Shown in pieces: positions 1,828 to 46,761 of a DNA stretch of 64,000 nt. The stretch spans positions 2,391-66,390 of the forward strand of contig JAEZTF010000007.1 in the NCBI GenBank assembly GCA_023443725.1. Reading direction: 5' to 3'. The position numbers and the translations under genes were made by a program. The notes under the pieces were generated by a model that made no database searches, was not told the origin of the DNA, and worked only from the letters and a program-made list of their open reading frames with translations. The DNA comes from Candidatus Parcubacteria bacterium. GTDB lineage: Bacteria; Patescibacteriota; Microgenomatia; UBA12405. Each line of letters begins with the position of its first letter. The stretch's first letter is position 1.

Positions 1828-2378
1828 AACAAGTCGTCTCCTATTTTAATATTTGAACTACTAACTCCATAAACACACCCATTACTAACAGAATAATCAT
1901 CAACATCAGTTAGACAACTGCTGTCGTTCGTATTTTCTAAATTAGCAAACAATTTAAAAGATTTTCCTGTTGTACCACTAATATAACTATAACCTTGAAC
2001 ACTATTTGTAGTTTCTGTTGGTATTTCCACCATATAAGTTACAACTTTGCCACCAACACTTGCCGAAAAACCCACTCCCGCCATTGTTAAATCTAAATTA
2101 GTAGATCCATATGGAAAACTTCCAACATCATTGTAATACATGTTTAAAGCTTTAGAAATTGAATTTAAATCATTTTTTCTTCTGACATCTCTTGATTTTG
2201 TTTGTGCCGTCCTAAAAGAAGAAATTGCTACTACCGTCAACACACTCATGATTGAAATTACCACCAACAGTTCTACTAAAGTAAACCCTTTTTGTTTTAA
2301 GATTGCTCCCTTTTTTAAGGGGAGCTGTTTCGATTTTAATCGAAACTGAGGGGTTTGTTCATTAAATTTATTTTTCAT
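1824..2378 (-). CDS. Type IV prepilin-type pseudopilin with a long (~30 aa) leader
   Basis: KGFTLVELLVVISIMSVL is preceded by a 30-residue basic leader. It is followed by SRDVRRKNDLNSISKALNMYYND, a GspG-like motif. The true start may be internal or non-ATG. Confidence 0.7.
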   Translation of the reverse strand: MKNKFNEQTPQFRLKSKQLPLKKGAILKQKGFTLVELLVVISIMSVLTVVAISSFRTAQTKSRDVRRKNDLNSISKALNMYYNDVGSFPYGSTNLDLTMAGVGFSASVGGKVVTYMVEIPTETTNSVQGYSYISGTTGKSFKLFANLENTNDSSCLTDVDDYSVSNGCVYGVSSSNIKIGDDLL

Positions 2379-2380
2379 TT

Positions 2381-2797
2381 TTAATTAGTACACACAGCAT
2401 AGACACCTGGTGTGGGAGTTAAATTACAATTAATTTGAGACTCGTTTGAATTATTAGAACCACTTTCCAAAGGTACTGTTAATATAAATCCATCACCACT
2501 ATCTAATTGACTATAAGTATAGCCAATACTAGATATATTTGGTAAATAACTAGAACCTATAGCAGTATTTAAACAATCGAAGCAATTAGTTCCTGTTGGA
2601 TAAGATTGATTGTCGTTATAATACATTCTCAAGGCATTTTTAATCGAATTAAGATCTTGAACTTTTTTGGAATCATTGGCTTTTTCTCTAGTTCCTACAA
2701 AATTTACCATCAACAAAGTTGTTAATATTCCTATAATCGAAATCACCACTAACAATTCCACCAATGTAAATCCTTTATTTAATTTACTTTTTTTCAT
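2381..2797 (-). CDS. Type IV prepilin-type pseudopilin (GspG-like)
   Basis: KGFTLVELLVVISIIGIL leader, followed by NDSKKVQDLNSIKNALRMYYND. Confidence 0.75.
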   Translation of the reverse strand: MKKSKLNKGFTLVELLVVISIIGILTTLLMVNFVGTREKANDSKKVQDLNSIKNALRMYYNDNQSYPTGTNCFDCLNTAIGSSYLPNISSIGYTYSQLDSGDGFILTVPLESGSNNSNESQINCNLTPTPGVYAVCTN

Positions 2798-2808
2798 TTT
2801 TTATTTTA

Positions 2809-3231
2809 CTAATTACTAACAACTGCTGATATTTTGTTTTCATAGCAATATTTTTTACCATCACAATCAAAAGATTTATCAAAGCAATCAACATCCTTTT
2901 TATTTTCTAAATTAGTCAATAAAGCAAAAGTTTGTTTATCATATTGTTTATAACAATATTGATTATCAATATAATTTTCCTTAGGAACTTGTTTCATATA
3001 AATATAATCTCCATCTTTCCATTCTTTTCCCCATAAACCATTGATCAACTTTTCTTCAGGCAACTTTCCATAATCAGCATAGTATAATCTTATAACTTTT
3101 GATAATTCATGCAAACTTGATTTTCTTTCTACATCTCTTGATTTTTTTTCCGCCAAATCAAATTGGCTCCAAGTAATCCAACTCAAAACGAAAACTACTA
3201 ATACTACAATAAAAAATTCTACTTTCTTCAT
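2809..3231 (-). CDS. Pilin-domain paralog lacking the prepilin cleavage motif (hydrophobic N-terminus only)
   Basis: It has the shared post-helix motif SRDVERKSSLHELSKVIRLYYADYG that matches neighbouring pilins. The N-terminus MKKVEFFIVVLVVFVLSWITW has no G-F-T-L-x-E. Confidence 0.45.
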   Translation of the reverse strand: MKKVEFFIVVLVVFVLSWITWSQFDLAEKKSRDVERKSSLHELSKVIRLYYADYGKLPEEKLINGLWGKEWKDGDYIYMKQVPKENYIDNQYCYKQYDKQTFALLTNLENKKDVDCFDKSFDCDGKKYCYENKISAVVSN

Positions 3232-3309
3232 TAGTTAATGATAATACTTTTTTAACCTAATTACAGCCAGCACCACAATAATCTATCCTAAATTATTACA
3301 AACTTAATT

Positions 3310-3789
3310 TTATATATCTGTATTCCAAGAAATATTAGAGCTAGAAACTCCATAATTAACTTCATTAATATTATAACCATCAATTTCATAAGAAACATCG
3401 TGGTTATACCAACCAGAAGGAATAGATCCATCTTTTTTGTTTTCCAAATTAGTCAAAACTTTAAAATATTTCCCATTATCACTCACCCAAATATAGTAAG
3501 GATTACCATTAGGATCACATGGCCAGGGATTTAAGTATGAATTAAAAATAGAACTTTTACAATTTGTTTTTATATTCCAATTTCCAATATCAATTGGATA
3601 AACTCCTTTGTCATTAAAATATTCTTCAAAAGATTTTCTAATTGCATCCAAATCTCTTTTTCTTCGAGAGTCATTTGTTTTTCCAAGTAAACCAGCTGGA
3701 TTAATGATTCCTACTAAAATAACAATTAAAATCATCAAGATAGCCATCACTATCAACAATTCCATCAAAGTAAAACCTTTATTTTTCAT
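3310..3789 (-). CDS. Type IV prepilin-type pseudopilin
   Basis: NKGFTLMELLIVMAILMIL leader, followed by NDSRRKRDLDAIRKSFEEYFND. The start is placed at the internal ATG (MKNKGFTL) rather than the ORF-track start at 3828. Confidence 0.7.
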   Translation of the reverse strand: MKNKGFTLMELLIVMAILMILIVILVGIINPAGLLGKTNDSRRKRDLDAIRKSFEEYFNDKGVYPIDIGNWNIKTNCKSSIFNSYLNPWPCDPNGNPYYIWVSDNGKYFKVLTNLENKKDGSIPSGWYNHDVSYEIDGYNINEVNYGVSSSNISWNTDI

Positions 3790-5369: not shown

Positions 5370-6581
5370 CTAAAATTGGGATGTCAAGTTGTAGATAGGC
5401 ATTACTACCGCCACCATCAAAAAAGCTACCCCTAAACCCAATACAATCATTATTAAAGGTTCAATTGCAGAAGTTAAAGATTTTACTGATTGTTCAGCCT
5501 CTGTAGCAAAATAATCTGCCACCCTTAACAAAACTTCATCTAATTTTCCTGTGGCTTCTCCGGTTGCCACCATTTGATTAACCACTACAGGGAAAATACC
5601 AGTTTCTTCAAATGAATTAGCAATTGAAAAACCTTTTTGAACTCTTTCAGCAATTTGTAAATAAGCCCGATTAAAAACTTCATTTCCTGATACATTAGCC
5701 ACAATTCTTAAAGTATCTACTAAAGGAATTCCAGCAGACAACAACATCGACATAGTTCTAATCGTGCTAGCTAATATGTTTCTTTGGTTTAATATTCCTA
5801 TTATAGGCAATTTTATCTTAAAATCATCTATTTTAAACCTAAATTTGTCATTTTTATATCCAATTTTAAATAACAAAAATCCTCCTCCAACTAATACTGG
5901 AATAAAAATCCAAAATTTAGTCATAAAATTAGACATCGACATCATTATCTTTGTTGCTGCTGGCATATCAGCTCCAAAATCTCCATATAAACCAAGCAAT
6001 TTCGGAATTACAAATACCATCATTATTACCACCACGACTAACATACCAATAACCACTATAATCGGATAAATCATTGCCCCTTTTACTTTACTTGAAAATT
6101 CATTTTGTTTTTCTAAAGTATCAGCTAATTTTGATAATATTTCTTCTAATACACCACCTTCTTCTCCGGCATCAATAGAAGCAATATATGCTTCACCAAA
6201 AATCTTCTTATATTTATTCAAACCATCAGCCAACGATTGTCCTCCTTGTACAGCAGTTAAAACATGATCAAGTATTTCAAACATTAAACTATTTTTAGTC
6301 GCTTGATTTTTTAATAAATTTAAAGCGTCAGTTAGGGCCAATCCTGAATTCATCATAGTCGATAATTGTCGTGTCAAATTTGACACTTGTTTTACTCCGA
6401 CTTTAGAAAATAAATTTCGAGATATTCCTCCAAGCAATGTCTGACTTTCTTCATTTACAGATAGAGGAATTAGACCACCCTCTCTAATAGATTCAATAAC
6501 TGCTGATTTTTCAGGTAAATCTACTACTCCTTTGATCAATTTTCCATTCCAGTCTTTAGCTCTATAAACAAATCTCGTCAT
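5370..6581 (-). CDS. pilC: Type IV pilus assembly platform protein PilC (GspF family)
   Basis: About 400 aa with two GspF repeats and three TM segments, and pattern matches to PilC/GspF (e.g. the LLxAGIPLVD-like segment). Confidence 0.9.
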   Translation of the reverse strand: MTRFVYRAKDWNGKLIKGVVDLPEKSAVIESIREGGLIPLSVNEESQTLLGGISRNLFSKVGVKQVSNLTRQLSTMMNSGLALTDALNLLKNQATKNSLMFEILDHVLTAVQGGQSLADGLNKYKKIFGEAYIASIDAGEEGGVLEEILSKLADTLEKQNEFSSKVKGAMIYPIIVVIGMLVVVVIMMVFVIPKLLGLYGDFGADMPAATKIMMSMSNFMTKFWIFIPVLVGGGFLLFKIGYKNDKFRFKIDDFKIKLPIIGILNQRNILASTIRTMSMLLSAGIPLVDTLRIVANVSGNEVFNRAYLQIAERVQKGFSIANSFEETGIFPVVVNQMVATGEATGKLDEVLLRVADYFATEAEQSVKSLTSAIEPLIMIVLGLGVAFLMVAVVMPIYNLTSQF

Positions 6582-7689: not shown

Positions 7690-9429
7690 TTAATATTGGG
7701 CCACTCTAATAACTTCATCAATAGTGGTCACTCCTTCTAATACCTTAACGTAACCATCTTGCTTCATTGTTAACATTCCTTCTTCCATAGCTTGTTTTTG
7801 TATATCCAAAGCAGCTGCTTTTTCAATAATTAATTTACTAATTTTTTCTGATATTGGCATTACCTCATATATAGCTATTCTTCCTAAATAACCAGTATTA
7901 TTACATTTTTCACAGCCTACAATTTTAGGAATAGTCATAGCCTTACCATCTTTTTTAAATTTATCTTCTAACAAATTATAAACAGGCCCTAAAGTTTTTT
8001 TCATATCATCCATTATTTGTGGCGTCATTTCCATTTCTCCAGCACAGTTTTTGCAAACTCTTCTCAAAACTCTCTGTCCAACCACACAATTTAATGAAGA
8101 CACTAATAAAAATGGTTCTGCTCCCATATCTAATAATCTTGGAGGGACTCCAGAAGCATCATTAGTATGTAAAGTTGAAAAAACTAAATGACCAGTCAAA
8201 GCCGCATTAATAGCCAAATCGGCCGTCTCAGTATCACGAATTTCTCCAACCATTATTACATTTGGATCTTGTCGTAAAAATGATCTTAATGCCGAAGCAA
8301 AAGTTAACCCTGCTTGAGTGTTAACTTGCACCTGGTTTACCCCTTTCATTTGATATTCTACTGGATCTTCAATTGTTACTACATTAACCTTTGTTGTTGC
8401 CACAATATCCAAAATAGAATATAAAGTAGTTGTCTTACCAGAACCAGTTGGTCCACAAACAATAATAATTCCATGTGGTCTTTGAATTGAATTCATTAGG
8501 TTCTTCAATGCTAATCCTCGTAAACCCAAGTCTGGCAATGTTGGTACTTTTTGTGATTTTTGAAGCAAACGCATTACCACTTTCTCTCCATAAGTAGTTG
8601 GTAAAGTAGAAACACGTAAATCCACATCACTCCCATCAACAGAAAAAAAGAAACGACCATCTTGAGGCACGCGCTTCTCATCAATTTTTAAGTTTGACAA
8701 AATTTTTATTCTAGAAACCACGGCATCATGGACATTTCTTGGAAGTAAATATTTTTCCTGTAAAATTCCATCAATTCTATATCTTACTCGAACATTTTCT
8801 TCTTGTGGTTCAACATGTACATCAGAAGCTCTAGACTTAACTGCATACTCCAAAATAGTTGATACAATTTTAGCCACTGGTGCTTCAATAGCAACTTCTT
8901 CTTGAACTCTCTTCATCTCCCGTTCTTCATCTTTTCTTTCATTCAATGCTTTGTTTACCTCAGAAGTAATTTTTTTCTCTCTAATATATTTTTCCCTAAC
9001 AAAGGCAGAAATTTGTTTTTCTGTCGACATCGATACATTTATCTTTAAATTAGTTCTTTTTTCTAAAAATTCTATTGTCTCTAAATCAAGTGGGTTAGCC
9101 ATGGTCACAAACAAAATTTTTTCTTTAGGATCAAAACGATAGGGGACTATATTATACTTTTGAGCCACACTTTCGGGTACTAAATTTAAAGCTTCTGGAG
9201 AAAAACCAATATTATCTAAATCCACAAAAGGAACTCTCAAAAAACTTGCTTTTGCTTTTATTAATTCATCTTCTGATACTAACTTTAATTCTTTTATTGC
9301 TTCTTCTTCTGTTTCACCAGTCTTAAGTTGTCGTAAGTTTATTTCTTTAGATTGATCAGAATTGATTAGTTTTAAACCTAACAAAGCTTCAGTTAAGTTC
9401 TTATATATTTTTGGGGCGGCATTATCCAT
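7690..9429 (-). CDS. pilB: Type IV pilus assembly ATPase PilB (GspE family)
   Basis: 579 aa with Walker A GPTGSGKTTT, a tetracysteine zinc motif (CKNC...CEKC) and an N-terminal GspII-like domain. Confidence 0.9.
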   Translation of the reverse strand: MDNAAPKIYKNLTEALLGLKLINSDQSKEINLRQLKTGETEEEAIKELKLVSEDELIKAKASFLRVPFVDLDNIGFSPEALNLVPESVAQKYNIVPYRFDPKEKILFVTMANPLDLETIEFLEKRTNLKINVSMSTEKQISAFVREKYIREKKITSEVNKALNERKDEEREMKRVQEEVAIEAPVAKIVSTILEYAVKSRASDVHVEPQEENVRVRYRIDGILQEKYLLPRNVHDAVVSRIKILSNLKIDEKRVPQDGRFFFSVDGSDVDLRVSTLPTTYGEKVVMRLLQKSQKVPTLPDLGLRGLALKNLMNSIQRPHGIIIVCGPTGSGKTTTLYSILDIVATTKVNVVTIEDPVEYQMKGVNQVQVNTQAGLTFASALRSFLRQDPNVIMVGEIRDTETADLAINAALTGHLVFSTLHTNDASGVPPRLLDMGAEPFLLVSSLNCVVGQRVLRRVCKNCAGEMEMTPQIMDDMKKTLGPVYNLLEDKFKKDGKAMTIPKIVGCEKCNNTGYLGRIAIYEVMPISEKISKLIIEKAAALDIQKQAMEEGMLTMKQDGYVKVLEGVTTIDEVIRVAQY

Positions 9430-9456
9430 AATTGTATATATAATAATAGTACCAAA

Positions 9457-10098
9457 ATGAAATTATTTCCGTCTACTATAATTGTTTCTCGATCAATTGA
9501 TCAATCTATTAATTACACTATTGAAACGTGCCAGTCATTAGGCCATAAATCCATAATAAATAATCCTGATCTTTTTTTGATTAACCAAGAAACAGGTTGG
9601 ACTATTGATCTTGTTCGATCATTAAAAAAATTTATTTCCCAAAAACCATTTTGCCACCAAAACAAAGTCGTTATAATATCTCAAGCCGACAATCTTAATA
9701 TAGAATCACAAAATGCTCTTTTAAAAACCCTTGAAGAACCAGGAGAGAATAACTATATTTTTTTAATTACTGCTAGACCATCAAAATTATTAAATACTAT
9801 AACATCACGATGTCATTTAATAAAAATTACTAATTTGGACAACAAAAAATCTTCAAAAGAGATTATTAAAATAACTGGAAATTTTCTTAAAGACACCTCA
9901 GGGTTAGAAGAACTTTATAAAAATAAGGACCAAATTCTACCTTTTTTAAAAGAACAATTAGCCTTATTACAACAAGACTTAATTAACAAACCAAGTACAA
10001 GAACTAGTCAAATTATTCAAAGAATTATTAAATCAATTAGTATGATTGAATCAAACGTCGACCCACGTTCAGCCTTAGATTTTGTTTTTTTGGCCTAA
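9457..10098 (+). CDS. holB: DNA polymerase III delta-prime subunit (short form)
   Basis: KTLEEPGENNYIFLITARPSKLLNTITSRCHL matches the delta-prime KTLEEP / SRC motifs. Confidence 0.7.
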   Translation: MKLFPSTIIVSRSIDQSINYTIETCQSLGHKSIINNPDLFLINQETGWTIDLVRSLKKFISQKPFCHQNKVVIISQADNLNIESQNALLKTLEEPGENNYIFLITARPSKLLNTITSRCHLIKITNLDNKKSSKEIIKITGNFLKDTSGLEELYKNKDQILPFLKEQLALLQQDLINKPSTRTSQIIQRIIKSISMIESNVDPRSALDFVFLA

Positions 10099-41380: not shown

Positions 41381-42085
41381 CTATTTTAACGGTTCTATCG
41401 TTTGAGTACACTCTAAAAATCCTAATCCAGAAAGATTATTATTTTCTTTATCTAAAAAACCTTGTATTTCCAATGATGGTTCAACGCAAAAATATTTTCG
41501 ATCATATATTTTCCGACCTTCCATCTCTTTAAAAGAAGTCCAAAATTGTCCATACTTAAAACCACTCAAACTCCATTTGTATTTCAACTTACTTGAAATT
41601 TCCAAGATATTTACATTAGATATTATTTTAGACGAATCAGATTTTATTAGCTTATCTATTTTTTTGCCATTTAATTTTACCCCCTGCCAATTATTATTTG
41701 CATTCCAATAATTATGTATTGCTATATTAATTATTCTAGATTTATTACTAAGATTTTTAATCTTAACTATTTGTTTAAAATCATCACCAATTTCAAAAAC
41801 TTGTTTAATATTAAGATCTAAACTTTCTACTTCTATTTCCAATTTTGTTTTATTTTTAAAAACTAACTTCCATTCCATACTTCTAAAAGGACCATGAAAG
41901 GGTAAACCAAACTTTTCCATTCCTTCACTTCCAAAATTCGGACAACAAACATGAGTATTACCTGCTTTTCCATCAATTCTTTCATAAGTCCCCAACACTA
42001 TTTCATTTTTATATTTTAATTCTCTTATTCTTCCCCCATTCAAATCAATTGTTAATTTCCAATCATTATTTTGTATTATTTCCAT
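41381..42085 (-). CDS. Aldose 1-epimerase-like (hexose-6-phosphate mutarotase-like) protein
   Basis: The HGPFRSMEW segment and beta-sandwich character. Low-confidence family call. Confidence 0.4.
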   Translation of the reverse strand: MEIIQNNDWKLTIDLNGGRIRELKYKNEIVLGTYERIDGKAGNTHVCCPNFGSEGMEKFGLPFHGPFRSMEWKLVFKNKTKLEIEVESLDLNIKQVFEIGDDFKQIVKIKNLSNKSRIINIAIHNYWNANNNWQGVKLNGKKIDKLIKSDSSKIISNVNILEISSKLKYKWSLSGFKYGQFWTSFKEMEGRKIYDRKYFCVEPSLEIQGFLDKENNNLSGLGFLECTQTIEPLK

Positions 42086-42187
42086 AAATCCATTTTATCT
42101 GATATAATCCCATTAATGTTGAATATAGTTTGTAAATCAAACCATCACCACACCAATTAAGTTGGTGGATTTCAACAGATAATCAAT

Positions 42188-42212
42188 CCGCCAACTTGGC
42201 GGGTTTTTGTTT
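42188..42212 (+). terminator. Terminator-like hairpin (CCGCC-aactt-GGCGG plus GTTTTTGTTTG) upstream of tRNA-His
   Basis: Read from the sequence. It is preceded by a second hairpin CACCAA-ttaag-TTGGTG at 42148-42168, with no plus-strand CDS upstream. Confidence 0.35.
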
Positions 42213-42235
42213 GATATAATCAAACGAAGTTACAT

Positions 42236-42313
42236 GGTGGTATTAGCTCAATTGGTTAGAGCGCAGCTCTGTGAAAGCTGAGGTTACCGGTTCAAGTCCG
42301 GCATACCACCCCA
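42236..42313 (+). tRNA. tRNA-His (anticodon GUG) with encoded G-1 and 3' CCA
   Basis: G-1 plus acceptor GTGGTAT/ATACCAC, discriminator C73, anticodon loop CTGTGAA, T-arm CCGGTTCAAGTCCGG, then CCA. Confidence 0.85.
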
Positions 42314-42417
42314 AAAAATATGAAAAATAAAATTAATTTTATTAAAAACCATCGACATACCGTGGGCACCAACACCGCGGGGTTCTTGGCCGCCTAAAAA
42401 CTTTTTTATTATTAATC

Positions 42418-42452
42418 AAATCCCCGCTTCCCCGCGGGGATTTTTAATTTTT
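42418..42452 (+). terminator. Rho-independent terminator after tRNA-His
   Basis: 10-bp stem AAATCCCCGC/GCGGGGATTT with loop TTCCCC, followed by TTAATTTTT. Confidence 0.55.
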
Positions 42453-42465
42453 AATAAAAAACAAA

Positions 42466-43860
42466 ATGAAAGAAATGTTAAACAATCAAGAAATCAATAG
42501 TAACGATTTCGATAATTATCAATTTAATATCATTAAACCAGGTGGAAACGACACTTGTATTATCACAAGTGCAGTTAATGATCAGGTAGAAAGAAAAAGA
42601 CTAAATGATCTAATCATGAGTAATTATTCTAATGTAGAACAAGTCGGTTTTTTATCTGACGATCAACTCAATATGGCTGGCGGAGAATTTTGTGGTAATG
42701 CCACCAGAAGTTCTGCTTTTTTAATTCTTAATGGTAAACCAGGAGAAATAAAATTAAACGTGTCTGGAGTCAAAGACGCTTTAGTTTGTGGTGTCAATCA
42801 AAATCTCGAAGCTTATGCTCAAATGCCAATTTATTCAGACCCTGAAAAAATAACACCAATTAGACAACCAAATGGTTTGCCTGATTACTTAGTAGAAATA
42901 GAAGGGATTTCTCACCTAATTACTTTTAATACTGAATCAATAGACGGCTTATCTGAAGAAAAAATTAAACAACTTGCTAAAAATAGAATAGATGAACTAA
43001 GTCTAGATAAACTACCTGCAGCAGGAGTAATTTTTACTCAAAAACAAGAAAGCTCATATCAAATTACTCCAGTAGTTTATGTTAGAGATATTGATACTCT
43101 ATTTTACGAGACAGCCTGCGGTAGTGGTACTACTGCTCTCGGTCTAGTTTTATCAAAAATAAATAATCAGTCTATTGATGACATTCCAGTTATTCAACCA
43201 TCTGGAATGGATATAAAAGTATCAGTCGATTTTGATGGTCAAAAATTTAGAACGGCCTTCATAAAAGGAAAAATTGAATCGTTGTCAAAAGGCGAAATAT
43301 ATCGCAATACAATCATTGAAAAAATTTCCGACGAAAGCCAATTAAATGATGCTTTTGATAAAGGATTAATTGATCTATATATAGACGTTTTCAGCCAACC
43401 TCCATATGAAGAAAAATTTTCAACAGACGAGGTAAAAGATTTCTTTAAAGATTACCTTAGTCTAGGAAATATTTTTATTTGTCGAGACAAAAATACTATT
43501 ATTGGTTTTTGTGCCTCACTACCACTTTCAAATGAACCAGAATTATGTAAATTATTAAGCTCAAAAGGAATAGATATTAAAAATACTATATATTTTGCCG
43601 AACTTGGAGTATCTTCAAACTTTAGACAAAAAGGTATTGGCAAAAAATTAACTCAATCACTTTTGAATTCTACTGGTAATCAGTCAGCCATATTAAGAAC
43701 ATCGGAAAATAATATTAAAGCGATATCTTTATATCAAAAAATTGGTTTTCAAAAACTTCCTGTAGTTCAAGAAGTAACCCAAATGAGAACTAGTGGAGAA
43801 ATGACAACCGATCGTCGTGTATTTTATATATTTAAAAAAAATTATGCTAGTCAAATATAA
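42466..43860 (+). CDS. Fusion protein: DapF-fold (diaminopimelate-epimerase-like) domain plus C-terminal GNAT acetyltransferase
   Basis: N-terminal domain has GND (IKPGGNDTCII), FCGNATRSS (Ser in place of DapF Cys73, relative to CGNGARC) and ACGSGTTAL (matching DapF ACGSGACA). C-terminal GNAT motif A FAELGVSSNFRQKGIGKKL. Confidence 0.55.
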   Translation: MKEMLNNQEINSNDFDNYQFNIIKPGGNDTCIITSAVNDQVERKRLNDLIMSNYSNVEQVGFLSDDQLNMAGGEFCGNATRSSAFLILNGKPGEIKLNVSGVKDALVCGVNQNLEAYAQMPIYSDPEKITPIRQPNGLPDYLVEIEGISHLITFNTESIDGLSEEKIKQLAKNRIDELSLDKLPAAGVIFTQKQESSYQITPVVYVRDIDTLFYETACGSGTTALGLVLSKINNQSIDDIPVIQPSGMDIKVSVDFDGQKFRTAFIKGKIESLSKGEIYRNTIIEKISDESQLNDAFDKGLIDLYIDVFSQPPYEEKFSTDEVKDFFKDYLSLGNIFICRDKNTIIGFCASLPLSNEPELCKLLSSKGIDIKNTIYFAELGVSSNFRQKGIGKKLTQSLLNSTGNQSAILRTSENNIKAISLYQKIGFQKLPVVQEVTQMRTSGEMTTDRRVFYIFKKNYASQI

Positions 43861-44446
43861 AGATTTAATTAAGATTGATGTTATTGATAATGGTGAAAAA
43901 TTAGTTAGTTTTCAAGACAATTTTTTACTTAGAGAAAATGTAGTTATAAAACTTAAACAAATTGAAATACAACTGCAATCAATAAACCCAAATTATGTTA
44001 TTCAAGTTTTATCTGGACTTAGAGATATGCCAAAACAAATTAAAATGTTCAAAAAACAACTAAGTCTTATTAGTCAAAAACGTTTTTATCAAAACTCTGT
44101 TGATCTTTATGAAAAAGTTCACCAATATATTGCTGTTCCCTCAGTAGCTGGACACCCTACCGGAGGAGCAGTTGACTTATTAATAATTGATAAAAACACT
44201 AATAAACCAATTGAGTTTGGTAGTGATTATTTAGATTTTAACAATCCAAATATTAAATACTTTTCAAAATCAATTAGTTTTGAATCAAGAAAAAATAGAA
44301 AATTGCTTCGCCAATTAATGTTAAAAAATGGATTTGCTCCATACGATGGTGAATGGTGGCACTTTTCTTATGGAGATAAAGAATGGGCTTTTTATTATAA
44401 AAAATCAAATGCCATCTACAACCAATTATTAAATGTTAAAATCTAA
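43844..44446 (+). CDS. M15-family zinc D-Ala-D-Ala dipeptidase (VanX-like)
   Basis: HPTGGAVDL (HxxGxAxD) and EWWHFSY (ExxH), about 200 aa as in VanX. Start trimmed to MLVKYKDL. Confidence 0.65.
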   Translation: MLVKYKDLIKIDVIDNGEKLVSFQDNFLLRENVVIKLKQIEIQLQSINPNYVIQVLSGLRDMPKQIKMFKKQLSLISQKRFYQNSVDLYEKVHQYIAVPSVAGHPTGGAVDLLIIDKNTNKPIEFGSDYLDFNNPNIKYFSKSISFESRKNRKLLRQLMLKNGFAPYDGEWWHFSYGDKEWAFYYKKSNAIYNQLLNVKI

Positions 44447-44448
44447 CT

Positions 44449-45693
44449 ATGAATCAACCAAAAATTAAACCTCAAACCCTAAAAGGTTTTCGAGATTTTT
44501 TACCTGTCGATATGACAGTCAGAAATTATGTCAAAAATACTTTAACTAGTCTTTTTGAAACTTGCGGTTTTCAACCTCTAGAAACTCCAGCCCTTGAATA
44601 TGGCTCGGTTTTAAAAGGCAAATATGGGAGTGAAACCGATGACAAACTTGGCTATTTCTTTAAAGACAATGGTGATCGTGAAGTTGGTCTTCGATACGAT
44701 TTGACCGTTCCTACAGCCAAAATATTAGCTATTTATAACAACCAATTATCATTACCATTTCGTCGTTACCAAATTCAACCAGTTTGGCGCGCTGAAAACA
44801 CTCAAAAAGGTCGTTATCGTGAATTTATTCAGTGTGATATAGATATTTTTGGTACCGACTCCCCCATTGCAGATGCCGAAATAATTTCTATCATTTACCA
44901 AGGTACTCAAAAATTCGGTTTTAAAGATGCTGTTATTAAAATTAATAGCCGCCAGATTTTAGCTTCTATATTAAGTCAAAGTGGTATCGAAACTAATCAA
45001 AATTCAGTACTTCAATCACTCGATAAATTAGACAAAATTGGTGAAGATGGAGTAAAAAATGAAATCATTTCCAAAGGCCTTAATACCACTCAAATTGATA
45101 AGTTGTTGAACAATATCAAAATAGCTCAACCTGATGATAAACTTTCTCAAATTCTAAATTCTTTAAATGATTTTAATATCCCTAAGTCAGCTTTTGTTTT
45201 TGATCCATCATTAGTTCGTGGTTGTGATTATTACACCAGTACTATCTTTGAAATCCAAGTACCACAGGCCAATGGTTCTATTGGAGGTGGTGGTCGTTAT
45301 GACAATCTTATCGAAACTCTTGGTGGTCCAAGTATTCCAGCTGTTGGTTTTTCATTTGGTTTTGAAAGATTAGTTGATGTTATTCAAGATCTTCAACTTG
45401 TTCCAAAAGAAAATCAAAACAATATTAAAATATTAATTGCCAATTTAGGAACAGAAACTCAAAAAGAAATTATAAATTTAACCAATCAACTTCGTCAAAA
45501 CAATATTTCTTCAATCATTTATCCCGATAATGAGAAACTTGGTAAACAAATTAAATACGCTTTATCTTTAGGTATTTCCTATTTGGCCATTATTGGAACC
45601 AACGAGGCCAAAAATAATACTATTACTCTCAAAAATTTAAACACTACCGAGCAACAAACAGTTAGCCTAAAAGAATTAGTTGATATGCTATAA
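44449..45693 (+). CDS. hisS: Histidyl-tRNA synthetase
   Basis: N-terminal LKGFRDFLP, class II motifs and a C-terminal anticodon-binding domain. 414 aa. Confidence 0.85.
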   Translation: MNQPKIKPQTLKGFRDFLPVDMTVRNYVKNTLTSLFETCGFQPLETPALEYGSVLKGKYGSETDDKLGYFFKDNGDREVGLRYDLTVPTAKILAIYNNQLSLPFRRYQIQPVWRAENTQKGRYREFIQCDIDIFGTDSPIADAEIISIIYQGTQKFGFKDAVIKINSRQILASILSQSGIETNQNSVLQSLDKLDKIGEDGVKNEIISKGLNTTQIDKLLNNIKIAQPDDKLSQILNSLNDFNIPKSAFVFDPSLVRGCDYYTSTIFEIQVPQANGSIGGGGRYDNLIETLGGPSIPAVGFSFGFERLVDVIQDLQLVPKENQNNIKILIANLGTETQKEIINLTNQLRQNNISSIIYPDNEKLGKQIKYALSLGISYLAIIGTNEAKNNTITLKNLNTTEQQTVSLKELVDML

Positions 45694-46038: not shown

Positions 46039-46761
46039 ATGCCAAACATTAATCCAAATATCGCCATAATGGAATTCTACCCCGGTCCAGGTGGCCAAGA
46101 AGCTACTATTTGGGCCAATGATCTAATGAATATGTATGTTCGTTATGCCAACAAAGTTGGTTGGAAAGTTTCTCAAATCGATGATCATATTATTCAAATT
46201 TCTGGATACGATGCTTATAGTCAATTAAAACATGAAGCTGGAACCCATCGGGTTCAACGCATTCCTATTACCGAAAAAAGAGGCCGTCTGCAAACGTCCA
46301 CTGCCTCTATTGCTGTCATGCCTCAAATCGAGTCTAAAGAGATTAATTTTAGTATGGATGATGTTGTTATTACCGCCTCTAGGGCTGGTGGTAATGGTGG
46401 TCAGAATGTTAATAAAGTTTCTACTGCTGTTCACTTAGTTCACAAACCTACCGGACTTATGTTTGATGTTCGCACCGAAAGATATCAACAACAAAATCGA
46501 GAAATCGCTCTTAAGCTGCTTCAAAATAAACTTTGGCAAATTGAAGAAGAAAAAAAAGCCTCTCAAATTGCTGGTGGCCGATCAAATGTCAGCCAATCAA
46601 CTCGAGCCGACAAAATTCGTACCTACAATTATCCTCGAAATCAAGTCAAAGATCATCGTGTTGAAAAATCTTTCAATAATCTTGACAAAATCATGGCCGG
46701 AGATTTAGATGATCTCTTTCTTGAGCTCACCATCCTCGACGAACCTATTGAAAAGAAATAA
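46039..46761 (+). CDS. Class I peptide chain release factor lacking N-terminal domain 1 (RF1-like, PIT/GGQ)
   Basis: GGQ motif [21 protein letters not shown]1-type tripeptide region [13 protein letters not shown] (PxT) and a C-terminal RTYNYP. It is only 240 aa, with just 82 nt between the rpmE stop and this start. Confidence 0.7.

Follow-up and report, generated by a model that had tools for sequence, protein, structure and literature searches.

A predicted histidine racemase fused to a GNAT acetyltransferase and encoded with an M15 amidase, tRNA-His and hisS behind candidate His-codon attenuators

In a 64,000-nt window, the whole stretch of DNA analysed here (contig JAEZTF010000007.1 of a Candidatus Parcubacteria bacterium), a single open reading frame (ORF) encodes a predicted cofactor-independent racemase domain, probably specific for histidine, fused to a GNAT N-acetyltransferase domain. 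It is followed by the gene of an M15 metallo-amidase and by hisS, encoding histidyl-tRNA synthetase (HisRS). The predicted operon comprises, in order, leader/attenuator 1, tRNA-His, leader/attenuator 2, racemase-GNAT, M15 zinc amidase and HisRS, and its genes overlap or abut (Table 1). We propose, as a plausible but tentative reading, that the locus is a histidine-supply operon, induced by histidine starvation, which would turn D-histidine (D-His) from amide-linked sources into L-histidine (L-His) for HisRS.

The N-terminal domain is, as judged from sequence profiles and a structural model, a distant member of the CntK/HisR family of racemases and not a DapF. Its N-terminal 260 amino acids match the NCBIfam model of the racemase HisR with an E value of 6.4e-30 and that of CntK with 6.4e-26, while the diaminopimelate (DAP) epimerase model DapF gives only 1.3e-3. 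The score against the DapF model TIGR00652 is 18.2 bits, for a cut-off of 114.65. A Pfam search of the fusion protein (E up to 1) matched the C-terminal GNAT only, with no match to PF01678 (DAP_epimerase), and an identical database protein carries the precomputed Pfam label PF26317 (CntK_N). In a sequence search of the PDB, HisR was found at 3.4e-21 and CntK at 1.8e-16. The AlphaFold2 model of the fusion (predicted local distance difference test score, pLDDT, 91.8; predicted TM-score, pTM, 0.85) was matched by Foldseek to CntK (6jis, 1.3e-21, TM-score on target 0.78), HisR (9cr6, 2.4e-20, 30% identity) and, well behind, DapF (3.7e-12, 14-17% identity). The original prediction, made from the sequence alone, had called the domain DapF-like; it was right on the fold class, while the family is CntK/HisR.

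The motifs on which that prediction relied are present (GGND at residues 26-29, CGNATR at 76-81 and ACGSG at 217-221), as is the fusion to a C-terminal GNAT. According to PMC11602996, the catalytic residues of HisR are Cys67 and Cys209, and likely imidazole contacts are Glu65 and Glu206, plus Glu49 after work on CntK. The segment GGEFCGNATRSS of the fusion protein aligns with GGEFCGNASRAF of the Fusobacterium nucleatum HisR, and the serines of the HisR mutants C67S (9cr1) and C209S (9cr6) lie opposite Cys76 and Cys218 of the fusion protein, respectively. The CntK counterparts are the cysteines Cys72 and Cys211 and the acidic residues Glu46 and Glu208. When 43 fusion proteins are aligned as a profile with Haemophilus influenzae DapF, Cys76 likewise falls on Cys73 (QCGNGAR) and Cys218 on Cys217, and Ser82 comes to lie opposite Cys79, which is not catalytic in DapF. 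The DapF sequence used is one that we take to be correct, and its numbering does yield Cys73 and Cys217. Both cysteines are invariant in 43/43 fusion homologues and in 81/81 racemase homologues from genome contigs, and so are Glu58, Glu74 and Glu215, which align with Glu49, Glu65 and Glu206 of HisR. Hence an intact two-base (two-thiol) active site is predicted. It had been claimed that the first catalytic cysteine was replaced by a serine (GNATRSS) and the second, in ACGSG, kept. The second is indeed kept as Cys218, while the serine is an alignment artefact, an outcome that the prediction itself had foreseen: evidently, the second cysteine of the DapF motif CGNGARC was mistaken for the catalytic one. 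As both cysteines are present, there is no basis for the one-base dehydratase or isomerase that had been derived from the serine.

The overlapping VanX-like gene reported downstream of the fusion is real. Its product matches Peptidase_M15 (PF01427) with an E value of 6.4e-16 and contains the motifs GHPTGGAVD and EWWH. Its start is the ATG at 43844, in the database protein and in the gene calls, so that 17 nt are shared with the fusion gene; this replaces the GTG at 43817 of the program-made ORF list. The top structural match of the AlphaFold2 model (pLDDT 93.4) is VanX (5.7e-10, 20% identity), followed by VanY and VanXY. The counterpart of VanX Asp142, which presumably binds the free N-terminal ammonium of the dipeptide, is retained. 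By alignment, His104, Asp111, Glu170 and His173, invariant in 36 homologues, correspond to VanX His116, Asp123, Glu181 and His184, which are described in bioRxiv 10.1101/2023.10.13.562161 as three zinc ligands (His116, Asp123 and His184) and the catalytic Glu181. The equivalog models are missed by a wide margin, with 54.1 bits for the VanX model NF033115 (cut-off 320) and 44.6 bits for NF007557 (cut-off 176). In addition, residues D168 and G169 next to the catalytic glutamate (S179 and L180 in VanX), and also A102 (S114 in VanX), are invariant in a clade-specific manner. The protein is thus predicted, from alignment and model, to be a divergent VanX/VanY-fold metallo-amidase with a complete zinc and glutamate set rather than a VanX orthologue.

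The C-terminal domain of the fusion has the sequence features of a catalytically equipped, N-alpha-acetyltransferase-like GNAT. It matches PF00583 over residues 311-428 (E value 6.8e-11, 42.9 bits for a cut-off of 20.7). The acetyl-CoA loop is RQKGIG (residues 387-392); conservation reaches 90% or more at R387, G392 and Y423, and N416 does not vary. The closest solved relatives in a profile search of the PDB are the N-alpha-acetyltransferases Naa30, Naa50, archaeal NAT and RimI, with alignments that span the acetyl-CoA-binding half only and are uninformative on acceptor or stereospecificity. A finer assignment was sought with single-sequence and profile searches of the PDB, which returned generic N-alpha-acetyltransferases only.

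To place the locus in a wider context, one genome per species was scanned, which yielded 80 loci (numbered with the prefix L). In these, the racemase and the VanX-like M15 protein form a conserved core pair and the GNAT is an add-on. A homologue of the M15 gene adjoins the racemase in 31/80 loci, across distant phyla, and a reciprocal look-up of four M15 homologues, picked solely for their long contigs, found a CntK_N gene immediately upstream in all four. Of the 31 loci with both racemase and M15, 19 also have a GNAT, and none is nearby in the other 12. The GNAT is found as a racemase-GNAT fusion, as a GNAT-racemase fusion (L029, L044, L063, L067 and L076) or as a separate neighbour (L011, L017, L032, L036 and L047). 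The best 120 of 998 matches to the fusion protein are almost all 417-511 residues long, with CntK_N and GNAT domains, and come from Gottesman-, Roizman-, Microgenomates- and Peribacteria-type genomes; among the matches listed, the GNAT fusion alone accounts for more than 100 clusters at 90% identity. The hosts of the module include Patescibacteria, Clostridia, the predatory Proteobacteria Micavibrio and Bdellovibrionales, an actinobacterium (Nitriliruptoraceae) and a Micrarchaeota (DPANN) archaeon, the latter with racemase, GNAT, M15 and hutH genes (L036).

The genes around the module are related to histidine. The racemase lies within 6 kb of hisS in 23/80 loci and next to tRNA-His in several; a TrpR-family gene is found upstream of it in 15/80 loci, and hutH, encoding histidine ammonia-lyase, in 6/80. 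In two metagenome-assembled genomes (MAGs) of Clostridia, a single ORF joins the M15 domain to a HisG of the long form (ATP phosphoribosyltransferase with HisG_C), downstream of tRNA-His, hisS and the racemase (L017:7795-9582, Lachnospiraceae, where a GNAT is found too; L045:6803-8569, Oscillospiraceae). The gene order in L014 is hisZ-hisG-[racemase-GNAT]-hisIE-hisS-M15. In 11 loci of Clostridia (L048, L052, L055, L057, L058, L060, L064, L072, L073, L079 and L080), a stand-alone racemase, at about position 6001 in most, lies directly 3′ of a polar-amino-acid (histidine-type) ATP-binding cassette transporter made of substrate-binding protein, permease and ATPase, some with an upstream His leader or TrpR-family gene. 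These racemases resemble a so far overlooked component of the operons for histidine uptake presented in PMC9413887.

The hydrolase of the module varies. ArgE/DapE-type M20 deacylases adjoin the racemase in L009 (2333-3472), L011 (4633-5847), L078 (6838-7884), L050 and L068, where they replace the M15 enzyme or add to it; these ORFs had at first appeared as second racemases. Similarly, second VanX copies in L014 and L021 proved to be short forms of HisG, drawn in by single-linkage clustering through the VanX-HisG fusions. In other Patescibacteria, the position of M15 is held by an S12 D-aminopeptidase-like enzyme, an M29-like peptidase and a protein of family A3 (motifs WNCIGFxW, PSNE and YxGEG), for which Pfam, NCBIfam and PDB-profile searches gave no match. 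The order in these loci (L012:6804-11540, L013:6810-8920, L027:6743-11220, L030:6828-9155 and L040:3781-6232) is a TrpR-like gene in some, unfused racemase, A3, S12 beta-lactamase/D-aminopeptidase-like enzyme, M29-like peptidase, hisS and an EamA transporter. Two further arrangements were observed: in the Clostridia locus L014, two full-length hisS paralogues (2255-3586 and 8143-9462) and hisZ flank the racemase-GNAT gene, and in a Micavibrio MAG the HisRS (L029:3871-5958), encoded beside a GNAT-racemase fusion, has an N-terminal extension of about 265 residues that gives no Pfam match.

The original prediction had suggested an uncharacterised pathway in which a one-cysteine DapF-like enzyme and a genuine D-Ala-D-Ala dipeptidase act on DAP, D-Ala or peptidoglycan compounds. 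A DapF-like fold, a VanX-like neighbour and the presence of peptidoglycan in most host lineages are compatible with such a model. We consider it scarcely credible, given the two catalytic cysteines and the scores against DapF and the VanX equivalog reported above, and also the M15-HisG fusions in two genomes and the occurrence of the module in the Micrarchaeota archaeon. Furthermore, there are no mur, ddl or van genes in the conserved neighbourhood of the 80 loci, and neither van (vanH/vanA) nor ddp genes are found near M15, whose conserved neighbours are the CntK_N racemase, GNAT, hisS and HisG. What stands of the prediction is the general idea of D-amino-acid metabolism; the DAP, D-Ala and peptidoglycan substrates are unsupported, the context being histidine-related throughout. 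Its description of the genes as a cassette inserted between tRNA-His and hisS was also partly right: the flanks are real, with a tRNA-His found by ARAGORN and a hisS that starts 2 nt past the M15 stop codon and whose product scores 410 bits against TIGR00442 (cut-off 286.75), but they are better taken as a functional clue than as the borders of an insertion site.

The regulation of the operon appears to depend on histidine as well. Two short ORFs with His codons, each with a predicted terminator, precede the protein-coding genes, the first just 3′ of a promoter-like site. Both are kept in three relatives (L082, L084 and L086), leader 1 as ...LNHHH(T/A)... and leader 2 as NH(R/C)HTV. The fusion proteins of these relatives are 81%, 77% and 60% identical to that of the window, and the DNA of leader 2 keeps a mean column identity of 88%, against only 60-81% identity for the downstream proteins. 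Each leader also allows an alternative pairing, between the 3′ arm of its first hairpin and the 5′ arm of the terminator, as in a classical attenuator (by inspection, TTGGTGG/CCGCCAA in leader 1 and GCGGGG/CCCCGC in leader 2), and the first stem of leader 1 carries a compensatory change in L084 (CGCTAAC/GTTGGCG). A terminator scan placed the terminators at 42185-42205 and, as a strong one, at 42418-42443. In further loci, short ORFs with HHH or HHHH lie 100-250 nt 5′ of the first module gene (L004, L011, L012, L014, L020, L021, L022, L033 and L048). Upstream of module genes, such His-run ORFs are more frequent than expected, with 11 found where about 1.1 would be predicted and a single one on the opposite strand; of the 11, one is the end of a TrpR-family gene and no leader. 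With two conserved His-codon leaders followed by terminators, the operon is very likely induced when charged tRNA-His is low.

Other modes of regulation were considered. A T-box or another known RNA leader was set aside, since an Rfam scan of 41900-42600 gave only the tRNA-His above threshold; Phe_leader (24.5 bits, at attenuator 2), rnk and L10-leader matched below their gathering scores. PMC9413887 describes a TrpR-family repressor, also called HisR, that controls histidine biosynthesis and uptake genes. Its operator, TTTA-N6-TAAA, does not occur in 42086-42466 and shows no enrichment in the window, and no TrpR-like gene was found in the window.

For the histidine-supply operon, the following sequence of events can be envisaged. 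Scarce charged tRNA-His would stall ribosomes at the His codons of the leaders, so that antiterminators form and transcription proceeds into the operon. D-His would then be freed by the M15 enzyme from an X-D-His amide, either a dipeptide or an N-acyl-D-His, and the racemase would turn D-His into L-His, with the charging of tRNA-His by HisRS pulling the equilibrium. The GNAT would most likely N-alpha-acetylate the surplus enantiomer or a co-released D-amino acid, which is the least certain step; its fusion to the racemase in both orders places the two in the same pathway. A role in L-His supply is suggested by the response to His-tRNA shortage together with the clustering with hisS, hisG and transporters. 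Since a racemase would be useful under starvation only with an input of D-His, and since the characterised M15 enzymes all cleave ahead of a D-residue, the path from X-D-His through D-His to L-His is the simplest.

Several points weigh against this scheme. All its support is in silico, and we know of nothing in groundwater or gut habitats that would naturally supply X-D-His amides in abundance. A starvation-induced racemase of free histidine would waste L-His unless D-His is truly the input. The racemase domain does not reach equivalog level (104.7 bits against NF052224, cut-off 400; 91.4 bits against NF033599, cut-off 300) and is therefore a distant member of its family. The invariance of its residues in the 80 loci is partly ascertained, as these were fetched by the motifs GGEFCGNA and CGSGT... 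The antiterminator pairings were drawn by inspection, and the four close sequences provide only thin covariation support. Linkage to hisS is frequent but not universal, and hisS is absent from all four loci of the reciprocal M15 look-up. Finally, the scheme needs no GNAT, yet the fusions in both orders argue for a tighter chemical link than an auxiliary role, and an acetylation that consumes histidine under starvation would be counter-productive.

A tighter link would be provided if the GNAT acetylated D-His, the racemase interconverted N-acetyl-D-His and N-acetyl-L-His, and the amidase freed L-His, in an irreversible route driven by acetyl-CoA. Such a D-to-L route fits induction by histidine starvation, the fusions in both orders are as for consecutive steps, and the M20 deacylases that adjoin the racemase in the five loci named above are typically L-specific. 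By analogy, the enzyme triad is that of the N-succinylamino acid racemase pathway studied by Sakai and colleagues, which reportedly consists of an acyl-CoA N-acyltransferase (GNAT), a racemase and an amidohydrolase. However, the window amidase belongs to M15, whose characterised members cut before D- and not L-residues, and 12 of the 31 loci with racemase and M15 are without a nearby GNAT. PMC12006748 cites Sakai et al. 2006 for the D-to-L conversion of amino acids with N-succinylamino acid racemase. In addition, HisR tolerated no modification of the histidine backbone, as stated in PMC11602996, and the active-site motifs in the window are those of HisR. We therefore regard this route as unlikely.

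The pathway could also run in the opposite direction, with the racemase making D-His, the GNAT trapping it as N-acetyl-D-His (a sink, a store or a secreted product) and the M15 enzyme recovering D-His. Each step would stay within the specificities for which the families give precedent (a free-histidine racemase, a GNAT related to N-alpha-acetyltransferases and an M15 enzyme that cuts acyl-D-amino acids), and a fusion would suit the channelling of D-His. An N-acetyltransferase of D-amino acids, Hpa3, exists in yeast. On the other hand, the route would drain L-His while the operon is induced by a shortage of His-tRNA, and the co-expression of synthesis and hydrolysis would create a futile cycle. 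Moreover, the retained counterpart of VanX Asp142, with its presumed role in ammonium binding, argues against an N-acetylated substrate, and N-acetyl-D-histidine was not found in a literature search. The production of this compound therefore seems improbable.

The apparent co-transcription with hisS and tRNA-His behind His attenuators brings up a chiral quality control for HisRS, in which the enzymes would clear D-His, D-His-AMP or D-His-tRNA(His) by trans-editing when L-His is low. HisRS presumably has no editing domain and, in work ascribed to Takayama and colleagues (2005), is said to esterify tRNA with D-His in vitro; non-homologous D-aminoacyl-tRNA deacylases exist. Nevertheless, the pair of racemase and M15 is often found without hisS, and also with hutH or hisG. 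M15 enzymes are amidases, and VanX leaves the ester D-Ala-D-Lac uncut. As the racemase itself would produce D-His, we judge such a safeguard very unlikely.

A broader interpretation, which we find doubtful, is that of a so far unrecognised, widespread system for the stereochemistry of a single amino acid. Its three enzymes would be a histidine racemase of the thiol type, an N-alpha-acetyltransferase and an amidase (M15, or else M20/S12), and attenuators with His codons or repressors of the TrpR family would tie it to hisS, tRNA-His and HisG. It would act either as an acetyl-CoA-driven, irreversible deracemisation of D-His to L-His or as a chiral safeguard of HisRS. If true, it would provide the first physiological role of HisR-type racemases beyond metallophore synthesis, the deracemisation would rely on other enzyme families than the known N-succinyl pathway does, and the system would represent a rare metabolic investment for genome-reduced Patescibacteria and DPANN symbionts. 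Only two cofactor-independent histidine racemases have been characterised; the family described here is far larger, and an amidase and an acetyltransferase recur as its partners. Its embedding in the histidine regulon takes several forms (His attenuators, TrpR-family genes, hisS, tRNA-His, hisZ/hisG/hisIE, hutH and histidine transporters). To our knowledge, a leader-peptide attenuator that governs a tRNA gene has not been described before in a Patescibacteria-like genome, and the leaders described here would document leader-peptide attenuation in Patescibacteria, including the control of a tRNA gene. For these genome-reduced, amino-acid-scavenging bacteria, the locus suggests a dedicated route for one D-amino acid.

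A literature search found no paper on the racemase-GNAT fusion, on the cluster of racemase, M15 and hisS or on N-acetyl-D-histidine. In PMC11602996, the physiological role of HisR is stated as unknown, and the similarity network of HisR is said to have admitted only proteins of 250-308 residues, a range that would have left out the racemase-GNAT fusions. The names that thousands of database entries bear ("diaminopimelate epimerase", "GNAT family N-acetyltransferase" or "D-Ala-D-Ala dipeptidase") are probably wrong, and the question of what D-histidine is for becomes directly testable.

Table 1. Features of the predicted operon, with positions in the window
Feature	Position	Strand	Details
Promoter-like site, TTTCCA-18-TATAAT, extended -10 (TGATATAAT)	42079-42108	+	10/12 consensus matches, TG present; consensus match only
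Leader peptide 1 (predicted), MLNIVCKSNHHHTN and stop	42116-42160	+	14 codons; three consecutive His codons at 42143-42151
Attenuator 1 (predicted)	42149-42210	+	hairpin CACCAA/TTGGTG(G); terminator CCGCCAA-CTT-GGCGGG then T-run; RNA fold z = -4.8
tRNA-His (GUG)	42237-42313	+	ARAGORN; Rfam tRNA 63.9 bits
Leader peptide 2 (predicted), MKNKINFIKNHRHTVGTNTAGFLAA and stop	42320-42397	+	between tRNA-His and fusion gene; two His codons around one variable codon
Attenuator 2 (predicted)	42360-42453	+	hairpin CCGUGG/CCGCGG; terminator AAATCCCCGC-TTCCCC-GCGGGGATTT then T-run; RNA fold z = -3.8
Racemase-GNAT fusion ORF	42466-43860	+	464 residues; ORF listing
Probable histidine-racemase domain (CntK/HisR-type, DapF-fold)	42514-43323	+	residues 17-286; Cys76, Cys218, Glu58, Glu74, Glu215
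GNAT N-acetyltransferase domain (predicted)	43333-43833	+	residues ~290-456; acetyl-CoA loop R387-x-x-G-x-G392, N416, Y423
M15 (VanX/VanY-fold) zinc amidase gene (predicted)	43844-44446	+	200 residues; His104, Asp111, Glu170, His173
hisS, histidine--tRNA ligase	44449-45693	+	full length, including anticodon-binding domain

Two other genes of the window are worth recording. Divergent from the leader, an aldose-1-epimerase-like protein of 234 residues is encoded on the minus strand (41381-42085), with a match to PF01263 of 27.8 bits that is barely over the cut-off; a gene for 233 residues occupies this position in the relatives L082, with a faint Aldose_epim match, and L084, with no Pfam match on record. 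A release-factor gene that follows rpmE (46039-46761) encodes only 240 residues. Its PCRF and RF-1 domains, GGQ motif and P-I-T tripeptide are present, about 100 residues are missing at the N-terminus in comparison with canonical RF1, and the database gene call has the same length.

Among known systems, the racemase domain most resembles HisR of F. nucleatum and CntK of Staphylococcus aureus (PDB 9CR1/9CR6 and 6JIS/6JIW), its best matches in sequence and structure, with which it shares the DapF-like two-domain fold, the two cysteines, the motifs GGEFCGNA and C(G/A)SGTTALG and the three glutamates near the imidazole, yet it is only 24-30% identical to them. The characterised HisR and CntK are without a GNAT, and the context of hisS, tRNA-His and M15 differs from the staphylopine genes of CntK (cntLM) and from the folate genes by hisR. 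DapF itself has in common the superfamily, the fold, the two-thiol mechanism and the landmarks GND, CGN..R and ACGSG, but the window domain has glutamates at the positions that contact the side chain of the substrate. The M15 protein shares its fold, zinc ligands, catalytic glutamate and EWWH motif with VanX/DdpX (M15D) and VanY/VanXY. Unlike VanX and DdpX, its clade goes together with a histidine racemase, and in the two Clostridia genomes the domain is fused to HisG.

At the level of the pathway, the nearest parallel is the N-succinylamino acid racemase operon, in which a GNAT acyltransferase, a racemase and an amidohydrolase make D-amino acids usable. Its racemase belongs to the enolase superfamily and acts on N-succinyl hydrophobic amino acids, and its hydrolase is M20, whereas the window combines a DapF-fold thiol racemase of a free-histidine family with an M15 hydrolase. 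As for regulation, new histidine attenuators have been described in Firmicutes (PMC9413887). The window leaders resemble attenuation of the hisL type: His codons follow one another in a short ORF, and alternative hairpins and an intrinsic terminator come between it and histidine-related genes. They differ in having only three (leader 1) or two (leader 2) His codons, in the tandem arrangement of two attenuators, the first of which precedes a tRNA-His gene, and in their predicted targets, which are hisS, racemase-GNAT and amidase genes rather than biosynthetic genes, in a Patescibacteria-like host.

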